Source of the DNA: a virus
DNA: 64,000 bases
Virus record (IMG/VR): IMGVR_UViG_3300035698_017294
Span: 32,001-96,000 of that record
Direction: 5' to 3' (one strand)
This document shows positions 37,284 to 50,808 of this stretch, piece by piece. The notes under the pieces are model-generated. The model ran no database searches. It was not told the DNA's origin and worked only from the letters and a program-made list of their open reading frames with translations. Every line of letters begins with the position of its first letter. Position 1 is the stretch's first letter. The position numbers and the translations under genes are program-made.

Positions 37284-38085
37284 CTTACCACACTTGCTTT
37301 CACAAGCCAGCTATTAAGCTGTTGTAGTCTGGACTATATCATCATCTTCAGCATTACCTGCTAAGAGCCCGGCGTATAGTCTCTGAGGGGTCATTACAGA
37401 CTTCCCTGCGGATTGCCAATTGTTTCATTCTACACATTGTTACTTGACAAATCAGTCCAAATTTGGTAGACTTGTAGTAGTGCAGACTTTACGGGTTTCC
37501 CGCATATAGCCAGGTTCCATCTAATTATTTCTAACCAGAGGCTCAGATTCATGAAAAATATATCAAAAGATGTTTTGTCAGAAATGTATTTAACGCAGAA
37601 ACTTAATCCATACGAAATAAGTAATATACTAGACTGCGATCATAAAACAGTTCGTAGATACCTAAAATTACATAAGATACAACTACGTACTGCGTCTGAG
37701 TATAATTACTTACCTCGAGTTTCGCATACTAATCCCACTAAAATAGAGTATATGCAGCCTAAATCAATAGCGGCGCATATTGCCTATTTATGCGAAGGTT
37801 GGCACACTAATAAAACTAATGGGCTTTATTTCTGTAATACAGATCCAAATTTAAATGATCTCATGTTGTGGTGCCTCAAAGAGATATACAATGCTAAAAC
37901 TATTAGATTGCGCATAATGGCAAAGTCTTTAGAGTCGGCAAAGCATTTATTAACATTCTATCCTAATACACCAGTAAGTGTAGAGTTAGATAGAAAGACA
38001 CCAATACTTAGAATTGTCTCGGGCGGGAAAACATTTGCTCGGGACTTCATTAAAAACGCTTATGATATAATTGATTCACTTGGTT
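37284..38085 (-). mobile_element. Group I intron (IC-like) between anticodon positions 34 and 35
   Basis: U before the 5' splice site, terminal G; IGS-like TGAGCC; P TATATGCGGGAAA, Q AATCCGCAGG, R CTCAGAGACTATA, S ATGATATAGTCC. Confidence 0.92.
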
Positions 38086-38087: not shown

Positions 38088-38129
38088 GTCTAGCGCGTAT
38101 ACCTAGTTTCGCCACACTCGCTAAAAGCG

Positions 38130-38210
38130 TACAGTTAGAGGGACTCGAACCCCCAAGGTATCACAGTACCACAACTCTCACTGCGCGTCTACCATTTTCG
38201 CCATAACTGT
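38130..38210 (-). tRNA. tRNA-Leu(GAG)-like with a shortened anticodon arm
   Basis: Leu-type D-arm GGCGAAAATGGTAGACGC, variable arm and T-arm, but loop TGAGAG is 6 nt. Confidence 0.55.
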
Positions 38211-39731: not shown

Positions 39732-39931
39732 CTATACTCCTCGTACTTTATCAATTCTACTTTTCACCACGATGCCGAGATGCTAAACTGGCGTTACCAC
39801 TTAAATTCTAAGATATTTATTTTTTCTTAATATTTTAGAATTTAAGTATAAACGCAGTTTGGTCTATATGTGCAATATACATATAACATAAGTGGCGAAT
39901 CACCACTTAAATATTTGAATCTAGAATTGAG

Positions 39932-40013
39932 TGGGGCTACCCGGACTCGAACTGGGACGGGGTTAACCCAGCGAATTTTAAGTTCGCCGTGTCTGCCATT
40001 CCACCATAGCCCC
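39932..40013 (-). tRNA. tRNA-Leu(UAA)
   Basis: GCGAA-ctTAAaa-TTCGC; variable arm. Confidence 0.93.
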
Positions 40014-46461: not shown

Positions 46462-46672
46462 ACTAGCTTTACTTCTTGCGACTGGTCGTTAGTAATATCG
46501 CATTGGCCGGTTTTCCGCCTTTGCACTAATACCTGCGCAGCTTGGAAAGCGGAGCGGGTGATCGTGGTTGGCGGAAAAAAGGCCTGGAGGCGATTATTAC
46601 CGGCGATCAATATCGCGTCTTCAATAATCGTCCGAGACGTTACGTCCCAGAATGTGATAGCCTAAAGCTAGT
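46462..46672 (-). ncRNA. Structured ncRNA candidate, family II copy A
   Basis: Closing ACTAGCTTTA/TAAAGCTAGT, GAGACGTTACGTCCC hairpin, ~140-nt irregular rod. Confidence 0.65.
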
Positions 46673-47005
46673 TAGTTTTACTTTTTGGCGGTACCCCTCT
46701 ACAACGATAGGTTGTCGATAGATTGTTCCCGAGCGAATGCGAGGGAAAATCTGGCGATAAGAGGTGGTTCGCCAACTTTGGACTTGTTGGGGATCCGGAT
46801 CCCCGATCGGGGAGCCCCGCACGCGTCGGGGCGCCTGCGGTCCGGAGAGCCGGAGACCTGGAAAGCCCATTTTGGAACAAAACGTGTTCCCGCGAGACGT
46901 TACGTCTCACAGCATTACGAATCACCGTGGGCTGCACTAGCCTGAACTCGGCTACTACAGATTACGCTGATTTTGACCGTAACACATATCTAAATCTAAA
47001 ACTAA
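46672..47005 (-). ncRNA. Structured ncRNA candidate, family II copy B
   Basis: Closing TTAGTTTTA/TAAAACTAA, GAGACGTTACGTCTC hairpin, ~90-nt rod plus GC-rich hairpins. Confidence 0.65.
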
Positions 47006-47007
47006 AG

Positions 47008-47330
47008 TGGAGGCGAAGGGAGTTGAACCCTTGTCCACACGATAACGAAACATGCTGTTTCTTACAGGCTTAGTTAGTTTTTACACTTTTATTTGTTAAT
47101 CCGGGGCGGTTCTGAAACTAACTTAGTAGTCCCCGGCGTTGGCCATTTGTTTAGCCGTGGTCTAGCGGCTTTCCGATCCGGCGCCGATTCCCTAACATCG
47201 GAGTCTTAGGGTCGACGGCTACTTAGTTAACCTAAGCGGCTAGTGGTAAATATTCGTCAATTACATTGAAAGGAGTATCATGCCTGTAGCATATATCGAT
47301 AGAATCGCATGTCGAAACCAATGCGCCCCC
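47008..47330 (-). ncRNA. ssrA: tmRNA; tag (A)DEYLPLAA* at 47232-47258
   Basis: 5' GGGGGCG..GGTTTCGAC, 3' GAC.AGGGTTCAACTCCCTTCGCCTCCA, G3.U70, tag ending LAA-stop. Confidence 0.93.
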
Positions 47331-47345
47331 ATAAAATAATACAAT

Positions 47346-47525
47346 TTACAACTGCTGTGCTGTTACGCCAAAGACGGTGGGAAAGCGCTCCCAATGCCGC
47401 GGGCTCCCACGCCTTTTTCTCGGGAGTACCATTTAAGTTACCGCTCCTCTGGTTCGTTGCAGATGCAGGCCATCGGTGTCACTCTTTAAAGGGTGGCTGC
47501 TTCTAAGCCTACCTCGCCGCTGTAA
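47346..47525 (-). ncRNA. ncRNA family III copy A: mimic of 23S rRNA H43/H44
   Basis: GAGGTAGGCTTAGAAGCAGCCACCCTTTAAAGAG (H43) and GCGTAACAGC (H44) inside a TTACAGC/GTTGTAA closing stem. Confidence 0.8.
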
Positions 47526-47559
47526 GGTGTATTCATATGTTGTTGTGTAAATTTATGTG

Positions 47560-47739
47560 ATACAACTGCTGTGCCGAGTTTAAGTCGACTAAAGACCGCT
47601 ATCCAGCTGTGATAGCTACGGACGGTTCCTCCTTCACAGGGAGGAAAAAATTATCCGCGACAATAGGTCGTTGCAAATGCAGGCTACTGCCATCAACATT
47701 AAAGGCTCGCGTAATTGCGTCAACACCTGGCCGTTGTAT
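47560..47739 (-). ncRNA. ncRNA family III copy B (paralogue with altered loops)
   Basis: Shares TACARCGGC.AGG, CTTTAA, GCCTGCATYTGCAACGA, GTCTTT and GCACAGCAGTTGTA with copy A. Confidence 0.75.
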
Positions 47740-47755
47740 AGATAAATTAAAAAGA

Positions 47756-47837
47756 AGCGGAAAGCACATGAAGTAGTTGGTACATCATAAGTGTACTGCA
47801 CATTGTGCAGTTAGAAGGAACTTCATGTATGGCCACT
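47756..47837 (-). ncRNA. ncRNA family IV copy 1 (Y-RNA-like)
   Basis: GG-CCAT-ACATGAAGT-TCCTTCTA..ACTTCATGT-GCTTT-CC. Confidence 0.75.
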
Positions 47838-47839
47838 AA

Positions 47840-47911
47840 TGCGCCGCCCCGGACTTGAACCAGGAACCGACCTCCCCACGGAGGGTGCTCTATCTATTGA
47901 GCTAACAGCGC
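47840..47911 (-). ncRNA. tRNA-like RNA with a 4-nt anticodon loop
   Basis: Canonical acceptor, D and T arms; CCTCC-gtgg-GGAGG. Confidence 0.7.
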
Positions 47912-47917
47912 GAAATA

Positions 47918-47997
47918 TACGGAAGGCGTTCGAAGTAAGGTTTTTAAGGATTCGCCCGCCGGGCGAATAAGTAGAAGGAACTTCGAACATAGCCGTA
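47918..47997 (-). ncRNA. ncRNA family IV copy 2 (Y-RNA-like)
   Basis: GG-CTAT-GTTCGAAGT-TCCTTCTA..ACTTCGAAC-GCCTT-CC. Confidence 0.75.
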
Positions 47998-48009
47998 ATA
48001 AAAACAAAA

Positions 48010-48116
48010 ACAGGAAAGCAGTTAAAGTAGGTTATATAGCGGGTCTCCAACGCCTCGATAGACGCCGAGCGCCCCGCTGGGCTTTATAAGTAGAAGGAAC
48101 TTTAACTATGGCCTGT
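48010..48116 (-). ncRNA. ncRNA family IV copy 3 (Y-RNA-like)
   Basis: GG-CCAT-AGTTAAAGT-TCCTTCTA..ACTTTAACT-GCTTT-CC. Confidence 0.75.
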
Positions 48117-48118
48117 AG

Positions 48119-48215
48119 TGGGGCACCCAGGACTCGAACCTGGAACCAACAGAGTCCGCAGCGTCATACAGCGCCGCTTACAGTCAGCTGCCCTAGCCAA
48201 TTGAGCTAGCGCCCC
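48119..48215 (-). tRNA. tRNA-Tyr(GUA)-like with a ~23-nt insertion 3' of the anticodon (48155-48177)
   Basis: GCTGA-ctGTAa-[GCGGCG ctgtatga CGCTGC gga]-c-TCTGT; short variable loop. Confidence 0.7.
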
Positions 48216-48377: not shown

Positions 48378-48406
48378 AGTATACTAAATTTAGATCTGCT
48401 TGTCAA
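48378..48406 (-). promoter_or_regulatory. Sigma70 consensus promoter
   Basis: TTGACA-N17-TATACT. Confidence 0.85.
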
Positions 48407-48869: not shown

Positions 48870-49757
48870 TTAAAAATTACCGTAGTTAACCTGTAAGCAA
48901 GTTAATCCGAGTTCCTTTCGCCACATATCTACAACTTGATCACGATCGTCCAGTACGAAGTCAACGTAATACTTGCCCTTCACATGTGCATCATATAGCT
49001 CACGCTTTACAAGGCTGTCCTTGCGATCGTCGCCAGGGTGCCGCATGAAAAGATCGGTATACTTAACTTTGTTATCAAACAACCATTCACGGGTGAGTGT
49101 CTCACATGATCCGTCGCGCCCAGATAAAAGTATCACGTGGCGAGTCGGATCTGCCATAATAAGGTCGTAAATAGGCTGACTAAGCGTGTCTAGCTTAACC
49201 TTCTGGAATTCAAATGGCCCGCGATTACCGCGATGCAGCGCAAGAGTTCCATCAAGATCACAAATAATCGCACGTGGTAGAGCAAGATCCTGTACCACCA
49301 AGTCAAGTTCAACATCTGGTTCTTTGATAAAGCTATCGTGGAAATCACGTATCACCTTTTCACCGACAGAGTTAGGGCAAACTAGGTCTCGGCGGATGCA
49401 CTCTTCTATAGGTACACTAAGGAAGTCCGTGTTGAGTTGTGCTACAACTGGATTTTTGCAACCCTCTTCCTTGTTGATCTCCTGCGCAATCTGCTGCATG
49501 CGAGTCCAGTGCTTTGGGTGTAGATTTGTATCGTCTACAATAACACTGAAGCCCCCCTTTACTATTTGCTTTACCATCCAGTCGCGTGTTTTTAACACAA
49601 GCTTTTCATTGTAAGGCGTCCACTTACCACCTAGCATCATACGCAGGTCGTCTTTGTTGACACGCTTGATCTGGCCAGGATGATCATTTACTTGTTGCTT
49701 CGCCCATGTCGACTTTCCCGACGCTGGAAGTCCCTTGACTACTATTATTTTCCTCAA
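48870..49757 (-). CDS. pseT: Polynucleotide 5'-kinase/3'-phosphatase (T4 PseT-like)
   Basis: GLPASGKSTWA, RVNKDDLR, DDTNL; CDLDGTLA, LSGRD, DDRDQVV. Confidence 0.93.
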   Translation of the reverse strand: MRKIIVVKGLPASGKSTWAKQQVNDHPGQIKRVNKDDLRMMLGGKWTPYNEKLVLKTRDWMVKQIVKGGFSVIVDDTNLHPKHWTRMQQIAQEINKEEGCKNPVVAQLNTDFLSVPIEECIRRDLVCPNSVGEKVIRDFHDSFIKEPDVELDLVVQDLALPRAIICDLDGTLALHRGNRGPFEFQKVKLDTLSQPIYDLIMADPTRHVILLSGRDGSCETLTREWLFDNKVKYTDLFMRHPGDDRKDSLVKRELYDAHVKGKYYVDFVLDDRDQVVDMWRKELGLTCLQVNYGNF

Positions 49758-50808
49758 ACTTGATCCCCCTTTTTATTATTTTCCATATATACTCACCGGC
49801 TTTATCAAATCGCCTATCCCAAATATGGAACAGTAGGGCTGGATGCCGCTCCCGCTGAAAGCACTTAGCTACATACTTGCGCTCAGTATCAGGTGAAAGT
49901 TGCATCTTTTTAAGCGTGTTTAAGCCGCTGCGGATTAGATCGTCGTGCTTTTGATAAAACTTTGCGCATGTTTCGTCAATCCAATCCCAATGCTCTTCAC
50001 CAGCGCCCTGGCGCAGGCTTTCAATCGGTTCACCTTTTATTATATAATCCAGCACAGTTTTCCCAGTCAGAGACATGCGTATACGTTGAAGCCGTTTGTA
50101 CTCCTCGAACTTGACCTTCATTCTAAAGTCTTCTTTTGGGTAATACAAAACAAAGCCTTCTTTGTTCGTAAGATTAAGCTTTTGCGCACCAGCAAAGTCA
50201 CGTGTTGCAATTGTATCAGCTGGGTATCGGTGCGGTGTGGGAAATCCTGGATTGTGATACGCTGTTTCTCCAAGCCTGTTGTCTATTGTTGCTACCAATA
50301 TAAGTTCTCTACGATCGCCGTAATTTATAACTAAACGATCTTCGGCGCGGTCGTCCGGATAGATGATTTCGAATTGATATGTCAACCCGTCTTTATACTC
50401 TAAGCCACTATACTTTTCATTGAGGATTTTATTGGCTTGTATTGCCTGCTTGGAATCGAACGATCCACGTGTCGCTATGCCGCGGTAGTCACCATAGGCA
50501 TACATAATGCCAGCATAGCCGTCCAGCTTATCGTATATTTCGAACTCGCTAATCGGTATTTCGCCGTCTTCTAGCTCATCAAAGTTAAAAAACTTGTACA
50601 GCGGGCGAGAAATAACTTTCCAGTCATCATCAACAATCAATCCTCTGCACATCCTTACCGACAAGGGCCAGTACCAATCAAACATGGCCTTCTTGGTATA
50701 GTTAAGTATCGATAATGGAATGGCTGGATCTGGATGATGCTGTAATCTTACGTACCCAGCATCCATCATATACTCAATATCTTTGCGCAGAGCGCCATCG
50801 ATAATCAT
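49684..50808 (-). CDS. RNA ligase 1 (T4 RnlA-like)
   Basis: LNYT, CRGLIVD, RPLYKFFN, DKLDG, ATRGSF.S.QA, FEII, EGFV, MKVKF..Y. Confidence 0.9.
   Translation of the reverse strand: MIIDGALRKDIEYMMDAGYVRLQHHPDPAIPLSILNYTKKAMFDWYWPLSVRMCRGLIVDDDWKVISRPLYKFFNFDELEDGEIPISEFEIYDKLDGYAGIMYAYGDYRGIATRGSFDSKQAIQANKILNEKYSGLEYKDGLTYQFEIIYPDDRAEDRLVINYGDRRELILVATIDNRLGETAYHNPGFPTPHRYPADTIATRDFAGAQKLNLTNKEGFVLYYPKEDFRMKVKFEEYKRLQRIRMSLTGKTVLDYIIKGEPIESLRQGAGEEHWDWIDETCAKFYQKHDDLIRSGLNTLKKMQLSPDTERKYVAKCFQRERHPALLFHIWDRRFDKAGEYIWKIIKRGIKFEENNSSQGTSSVGKVDMGEATSK

Follow-up and report, generated by a model that had tools for sequence, protein, structure and literature searches.

A phage RNA family resembling the GTPase-associated center of 23S rRNA, with a loop-swapped tandem paralogue in a viral tRNA array

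The window, by which we mean the entire 64,000-nt stretch of DNA analyzed here, comes from a 106-kb IMG/VR virus record, ~56% complete. ARAGORN and Rfam placed 19 tRNAs, a tmRNA, and a group I intron in this window. [quoted passage not shown] A promoter-like sequence heads a 2.2-kb stretch without a convincing open reading frame (ORF), two RNA-repair genes lie just upstream of the RNA array, and a DNA ligase gene lies downstream of it. The main features are as follows.

49684-50808, minus strand: T4-type RNA ligase 1 (Rnl1, rnl1), just upstream of the RNA array
48870-49757, minus strand: Pnkp, just upstream of the RNA array
48378-48406, minus strand: sigma-70-like promoter, TTGACA-17-TATACT (11/12, consensus match only), at the head of the RNA-only array
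47560-47739, minus strand: copy B, a diverged tandem paralogue of copy A with both GAC loops replaced
47346-47525, minus strand: copy A
47005-47330, minus strand: phage tmRNA gene (ARAGORN, Rfam), starting 15 nt downstream of copy A

Processing of the tmRNA 5' end would free the 3' side of copy A. Searches of the 106-kb record (~56% complete) found no uL11 gene and no match to a Ro60 (TROVE) gene, the latter tested with regard to Ro60-associated Y RNA, and a megablast search of phage records with the 12 kb surrounding the locus gave no match.

With E. coli 23S numbering taken from the authentic rrlH sequence, copy A was divided into the following parts.

47516-47525, minus strand: 5' strand of the closing stem, TTACAGCGGC (~23S 1046-1055)
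47490-47515, minus strand: H43 equivalent, comprising 1056-1061, GGC-UUAGAAGCA-GCC with A1067, and 1077-1081
47481-47489, minus strand: T-loop-like turn UUAAA (1082-1086) and GAGU (1087-1090, including A1088)
47373-47480, minus strand: lineage-specific insert of 108 nt with a basal stem of sequence GAC/GUC, containing GCCTGCATCTGCAACGA, which is common to copy B
47356-47372, minus strand: UUUG linker, H44 hairpin GC-GUAACA-GC (A1095), and ACA (1101-1103)
47346-47355, minus strand: 3' strand of the closing stem, GCAGTTGTAA (~23S 1104-1113)

Copy A agreed with 23S positions 1056 to 1090 at 29/35 nucleotides in E. coli and 31/35 in Paenibacillus, and with positions 1091 to 1103 at 11/13 in E. coli; several of the differences were compensated or fell at naturally variable positions (1058:1080, changed from U:A to G:C; 1061; and 1097). 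The 3-bp GGC/GCC top of H43 and its 9-nt loop with A1067 (47495-47509) were identical to E. coli 1062-1076, the H44 hairpin (G1091-C1100 and C1092-G1099 with a hexaloop GUAAYA) was present at 47359-47368, and both U1060 and A1088 were carried. The insert interrupts the domain after U1090, and the whole RNA is closed by its own 10-bp stem. The two strings quoted in the initial annotation, GAGGTAGGCTTAGAAGCAGCCACCCTTTAAAGAG (47514 to 47481) and GCGTAACAGC (47368 to 47359), were both found on the minus strand, and its estimate of a ~110-nt insert agreed with the 108 nt plus UUUG linker measured here. Its statement that this is not an rRNA gene also held, given that copy A stands alone, is interrupted by 108 nt, and has no other rRNA beside it in the window according to Rfam. 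Over 47346-47739, the only match to Rfam 15 with an E of 10 or less was noise, to permuted tmRNA at 16 bits. Single-sequence folding gave no signal (z of +0.34 for copy A and -1.4 for copy B), as is expected where a fold is held by tertiary contacts, and comparative analysis was therefore relied on.

A blastn search against phage records revealed an H43-like segment in unannotated gaps of eight cultured phages, namely, Pseudomonas phages pf16, UNO-G1W1, Milchi, and Astolliot, Cronobacter phage GAP32, Pectobacterium phage CBB, Aeromonas phage 4_4572, and Xanthomonas phage XacN1. All eight have the same layout, consisting of complementary arms, H43, UUUAAAGAGU, a variable insert, and UUUGGCGUARNAGCACAC. 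In IMG/VR, the H43 word lay upstream in 62/118 loci fetched by the phage-specific 3' word, and a covariance model added ~10 loci with variant (1067) loops. The same 3' word matched 120 loci in bacterial genomes, with the H43 word upstream in none of them (0/120). Moreover, the 18-nt H43 word in viral contigs marked a split element in 113 of 119 cases and contiguous 23S in none. After de-duplication, 131 unique members were obtained, all from viral contigs, with a length from H43 to the 3' motif of 70 to 411 nt (median, 181); these RNAs form a large, phage-only family. A tRNA was located at most 50 nt away in 58 of the 131 members and at most 150 nt away in 71, always co-oriented with the element. 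No conserved neighboring protein family was detected over the 131 loci, the commonest neighbors being HNH endonucleases (9 and 8 loci), Pnkp/Rnl1 (6 loci, including this one), and metallophosphoesterase (5 loci); RNA-repair genes occurred within 4 kb in 6/131 loci, and 125/131 had no such enzyme within that distance.

Paenibacillus phage Pd_22F and short Listeria, Staphylococcus, and Acinetobacter records were rejected as members, as they hold ordinary contiguous 23S. In Pd_22F (L005, MZ092003.1, ~82.5-85.5 kb), ~3 kb of genuine contiguous 23S occupies an unannotated stretch, which is host DNA or an assembly contaminant. The XacN1 element (L003, 1490-1780) lies between a 2'-5' RNA ligase gene, which immediately precedes it, and a strong hairpin resembling a terminator, suggesting a discrete RNA 3' end there.

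Base pairing was counted over the 104 members with standard spacing. The closing stem was paired in 81 to 99% of members over nine positions, compared with ~40% after shuffling, and all pair types were used. Within the domain, 1057:1081 (A-U, C-G, and G-C) and 1058:1080 (U-A, G-C, A-U, and C-G) covaried, as did 1082:1086, which was U:A in 53 members, C:G in 36, and A:U in 7 across the family, and position 1056.1103 was purine.A, as in rRNA. The insert starts immediately after U1090 with a stem of 4 covarying base pairs and ends immediately before UUU. In an alignment of 42 short members from which the window was excluded, 88.4% of the cells were paired versus 63.4% after shuffling, and the covariation score was 0.62 versus 0.17 for shuffled and 0.11 to 0.19 for slid partners, all of these being statistics that ignore relatedness among the members.

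Five positions (G1059, U1060, A1077, C1079, and A1084) were invariant, and A1067 and A1095 were kept in 97/104 and 100/104 members, respectively, a loop conservation that was partly imposed by the way in which members were collected (A1088 was fixed by the parsing pattern, and U1060 was not selected on). The 3' motif, including the H44 hairpin, was equally conserved in a sample anchored on the 5' word only, which did not select it. The initial annotation had named loops that are not conserved in homologues as a finding that would speak against its reading; the loops proved to be conserved. A covariance model, R1, was trained on the 42 other phage members with the window held out. It gave copy A (47346-47525, minus strand) 91.3 bits (E, ~8e-28), the 23S of Paenibacillus 63 bits, and E. 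coli 23S 1046-1113 54 bits. A compact phage variant without an insert (L128:3708-3777, GGCTTAGAAGCAGCCATC...GCGTAACAGCGATCACC), which adjoins a tRNA-like region, received 36 bits. Across the whole 106-kb record, model R1 found one copy only. Copy A displays all features of the split-GAC family, namely, the private closing stem, the insert basal stem after U1090, the UUUG linker, and A1101. The match of copy A to H43 (A1067) and H44 (A1095), as originally proposed, was confirmed both by the alignment to 23S and by the held-out model, which returned the same start coordinate.

Just upstream of the canonical element of Milchi (L007), at ~1155-1478, lies a second, divergent GAC-type element. Its loop UUAAAGGUA contains U1072 and its hairpin GGU-GUCAUA-ACA contains U1092-A1099, which prompted a test of the base triple between 1072 and 1092:1099. 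Elements with U1072 were fetched with 5' words only, and one regular expression that left 1091, 1092, 1099, and 1100 free was applied. C1072 occurred with C1092:G1099 in 76 elements and with U:A in 1, and U1072 occurred with U1092:A1099 in 21 and with C:G in none (Fisher p, ~2e-20, not corrected for relatedness). At this triple, copy A has C1072 with C:G. The triple was reportedly first inferred by Conn, Gutell, and Draper in 1998 from the same covariation in rRNAs. Contact between H43 and H44 in E. coli 23S through a C1072/C1092 pair and a hydrogen bond from C1072 to G1099 has been documented (PMC2952862). Because the helices and the tertiary triple both covary, the phage RNAs very probably take the real three-dimensional GAC fold, docking H43 on H44 as the ribosome does despite the insert.

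Copy B (47560-47739) is a true tandem duplicate of copy A that has kept the scaffold and is no longer a GAC mimic. The global alignment of the two copies scored 121 (z, ~11), whereas shuffled sequences reached 52 +/- 6 and no other part of the array exceeded 63; the last 14 nt at the 3' end are the same in both, 214 nt apart. The closing stem of copy B (ATACAACGGC/GCAGTTGTAT) shows the same G.A mismatch as that of copy A and one compensatory change from U-A to A-U, which argues for a retained structure, although copy B may still be a relic. Copy B also retains the H43 base AGG/CCU, the insert word GCCTGCATYTGCAACGA, UCUUU, and CACA. In contrast to this shared scaffold, a CGC/GCG hairpin with six loop nucleotides stands in place of the top of H43, the sequence of the turn is UUAAU, GAGU is lost, and the H44 hairpin has become GUCGA-CUUAAAC-UCGGC. 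With model R1, copy B scored 0.7 bits. Thus, the original description of copy B as keeping the scaffold and swapping the loops was borne out by the shared stem, AGG/CCU, GCCTGCATYTGCAACGA, and 14-nt 3' end, and the claim that both RNAs mimic the GAC stood for copy A (91.3 bits) and failed for copy B. Tandem degenerate paralogues were rare elsewhere among the 131 members, the cases being L144, which has two canonical copies, and the divergent second copy of Milchi; clear tandem paralogy was limited to L144 and this window.

The replacement hairpin of copy B (~47576-47592) has the form of an anticodon stem-loop, with 5 bp, a 7-nt loop, U33, a purine at 37, and UAA as the "anticodon." Its loop equals that of the phage's own tRNA-Leu(UAA) (CUUAAAA; gene at 39931-40013) at 6/7 positions, which could be due to chance.

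Inserts across the family measure 25 to 350 nt and are hypervariable, with several module types. A CACC-[3 bp + tetraloop]-GGUAAGG module was present in 25 of 120 inserts, and a type with GGGGAAGGA...CCCUUAGAG was present in 7 of 120. A hairpin like the sarcin-ricin loop (SRL), AGUAC-GNRA-GGA, was found in only three members (L073, L119, and L165), all from IMG/VR contigs with inserts of >300 nt; in these three, both sites at which factors dock on the 50S subunit would be copied. Similarity of the inserts to the rest of 23S was not in excess of the control (449 versus 379 HSPs). The insert of copy A has neither an SRL copy nor any of the recurrent family modules, and a search of IMG/VR for relatives of it through the word GCCTGCATYTGCAACGA, shared by copies A and B, gave only 18 chance matches in coding DNA.

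Compared with the 23S GAC (E. coli 1051-1108, the 58-nt domain that binds uL11 and thiostrepton), the phage RNA has in common both loop sequences, the H43 stem, the 1082-1086 turn, the G1087-C1102 pair, the purine.A at 1056.1103, and the 1072.(1092:1099) triple with the same kind of covariation, and the model built from the phage family finds authentic 23S GACs at 54 to 63 bits. Unlike the 23S GAC, the phage RNA is a stand-alone gene in a phage tRNA array, is closed by a private, freely covarying stem in place of H42, and is always interrupted after U1090 by 25 to 350 nt followed by UUUG; moreover, position 1101 is A in the phage RNA and U in 23S. Ribosomal-protein mRNA leaders, such as the L10 leader (RF00557), which imitates the neighboring uL10 site, bind ribosomal proteins off the ribosome. 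Such leaders and the phage RNA both imitate a protein-binding site in the same region of 23S. However, the leaders are cellular, act in cis on a downstream ribosomal-protein gene, and are only loosely rRNA-like, whereas the phage RNA is viral, has no downstream ORF, and is a near-exact homologue; none of the Rfam leader families matched in a search of the window.

Large phages carry tRNAs and tmRNA, which are now linked to evasion of tRNA-targeting defenses. The phage RNA occupies the same genomic niche and strand as these genes, shares with them the theme of a phage-borne RNA of host translation, and probably passes through the same precursor transcripts and processing. In contrast to tRNAs and tmRNA, which can function in translation, an isolated rRNA domain cannot, and it must therefore act by imitation or binding. 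Munishkin and Wool are said to have shown in 1997 that "ribosome-in-pieces" RNAs, made of the thiostrepton region and the sarcin-ricin loop, bind EF-G in vitro. The free GAC domain is common to those oligoribonucleotides and the phage RNA, and an SRL-like hairpin is also found in L073, L119, and L165; however, the former are laboratory constructs, and copy A has no SRL-like element.

Judging from sequence comparison, copy A is probably a stable noncoding RNA gene that rebuilds the GAC (nt 1046 to 1113) and imitates this site off the ribosome, binding uL11 and most likely serving as a decoy or sponge. One promoter would drive its transcription together with that of the neighboring tRNAs, the tmRNA, and further small RNAs, and it would then be excised from the precursor. 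Its two ends, clamped by the private stem, would reconstitute H43 with A1067, the 1082-1086 turn, H44 with A1095, and the docking of H43 on H44, and the lineage-specific insert would exit the fold between U1090 and G1091. Both uL11 and thiostrepton bind the 58-nt rRNA domain as isolated RNA, and by analogy the free phage domain is predicted to bind host uL11 and may present the A1067/A1095 cleft off the ribosome. The target drawn away could be a GAC-directed toxin or defense enzyme, uL11 itself, or a translation GTPase. tRNAs and RNA-repair genes are the usual countermeasures to RNA-damaging defenses. We rank a decoy for a site-recognizing factor first, followed by a scaffold for the insert and then by titration of uL11 that blunts RelA. 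In line with a decoy, a GAC-directed toxin does exist, namely, Tre23, which ADP-ribosylates 23S nucleotides 1095 to 1098 (PMC8661411), and the gene for the RNA is found among tRNA and RNA-repair genes. Against a decoy, stoichiometric RNA is weak when set against a turnover enzyme, and a pure decoy model leaves the hypervariable insert unexplained. Titration of uL10, which had also been suggested at the outset, is unlikely, since the closing stem consists of 9 to 10 plain, freely covarying Watson-Crick pairs of all types, and the features of the uL10 site below 1051 (H42 and kink-turn 42) are absent.

A broader reading, which we put forward only tentatively, sees these RNAs as a modular counterdefense platform. 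A uL11-loaded GAC would mislead enzymes and factors that recognize the site, such as Tre23-like rRNA ADP-ribosyltransferases, rRNA nucleases, stalk-dependent abortive-infection effectors, or a translation GTPase; giant members would add an SRL copy and so imitate the whole factor-docking site, and duplicates like copy B, whose H44 replacement would be an anticodon-stem-loop look-alike, would display other baits. Much less likely than the decoy is a scaffold model, in which the GAC is a compact, nuclease-resistant handle that recruits abundant uL11 as a chaperone or stabilizer and the variable insert does the work. The constant exit point of the insert with its covarying 4-bp stem, the recurrent insert modules (25/120, 7/120, and three SRL-like), and the retention of the scaffold and insert word by copy B while the GAC loops were dropped are all in line with such a handle; however, members with next to no insert (length down to 70 nt), and L128 with none, still keep the GAC, and the two loops, which a merely stable fold does not need, are the most conserved parts. 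Titration of uL11 by an abundant RNA, stripping ribosomes of the protein so that RelA is not activated and the stringent response is blunted, appears improbable. The conserved fold and nucleotides are the defining features of the uL11-binding domain, RelA cannot be activated without uL11 (relC), and placement in a tRNA operon predicts high expression, but no link from the RNA to RelA or ppGpp was seen here, most uL11 stays ribosome bound on the time scale of an infection, and the conservation of A1067 and A1095 exceeds what binding of the uL11 C-terminal domain needs.

The initial annotation had also raised the idea of a patch used with the RNA ligases, that is, a replacement GAC ligated by Pnkp/Rnl1 into damaged 23S, and the evidence for it is gene proximity: the two enzymes lie directly upstream here, and RNA-repair genes recur close to 6 of the 131 elements. 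A private, non-H42 stem closes copy A on itself and 108 nt are inserted in it, which leaves no way of splicing it into 23S; moreover, such enzymes are missing within 4 kb of the other 125 elements, and the known role of Pnkp/Rnl1 is tRNA repair, already explained by the adjacent tRNAs, making a patch highly improbable. For copy A, we rejected as scarcely credible the view that it is an artifact or relic, be it rRNA sequence brought in by contamination or capture, a chimera of the assembly, or a pseudogene that is decaying without function. Genuine contiguous 23S does exist in short "phage" records and in Pd_22F, but the split architecture recurs in the complete genomes of eight isolated phages and in >130 independent contigs, which rules out the assembly chimera that had been foreseen as an objection, compensatory changes occur in every helix and in the tertiary triple, and the held-out score points the same way.

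Full-text literature searches turned up no account of such an RNA, and Rfam 15 has no such family. Phages are known to carry tRNAs, tmRNA, and a few ribosomal proteins and are not known to carry pieces of rRNA as free-standing RNAs. A survey of IMG/VR that listed 10,006 candidate structured RNAs in viruses had no overlap with rRNA predictions (PMC10690425). If the mimicry is real, the family would represent a new class of viral noncoding RNA and a new kind of molecular mimicry, and it would point to an unrecognized conflict or control point at the uL11/GTPase-docking site during infection, with GAC-directed host toxins, stringent-response signaling via uL11, and translation-factor capture as candidates. 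The biochemistry of the 58-nt domain (uL11, thiostrepton, and defined mutants) is well established, and isolated phages of Pseudomonas, Cronobacter, Pectobacterium, Aeromonas, and Xanthomonas carry the RNA, making the proposal testable. The family is also a natural data set of the GAC positions that are free to vary while the fold is kept, and it reveals a tolerated insertion point for engineering. The base-triple covariation is what the present analysis adds at the family level, and the loop-swapped tandem paralogue is what this window adds.

Other unusual RNA-like elements were observed in the same region. Within the same transcription unit, 47750-48115 (minus strand) holds three copies of another paralogous RNA-like module, interleaved with tRNA-like genes; each has long-range complementary arms and the plus-strand word AGTAGAAGGAACTT..A..ATGGCC (at 47807, 47967, and 48086), and one is a weak Vault-RNA noise match. 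Between tRNA-Met and the tmRNA, the palindromic word CGAGACGTTACGTCYCA occurs at 46633-46649 and 46893-46909, 260 nt apart, which suggests that the array contains one more, third pair of small paralogous RNAs. A tRNA matched by Rfam at 46.5 bits (48119-48215, minus strand), on which ARAGORN was silent, has a 24-nt insertion in the anticodon loop region and apparently a GUA (Tyr) anticodon, and it could represent a phage tRNA with an intron. Possible tRNA mimics or frameshift-suppressor-like tRNAs are a gene resembling tRNA-His (47840-47911, minus strand), whose anticodon loop is 6 nt long in the Rfam alignment, and a "tRNA-???" call by ARAGORN (38129-38210, minus strand), whose anticodon, gttg, has four bases. 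The group I intron (37311-37565, minus strand; Rfam, 63 bits) lies within a tRNA-rich region.
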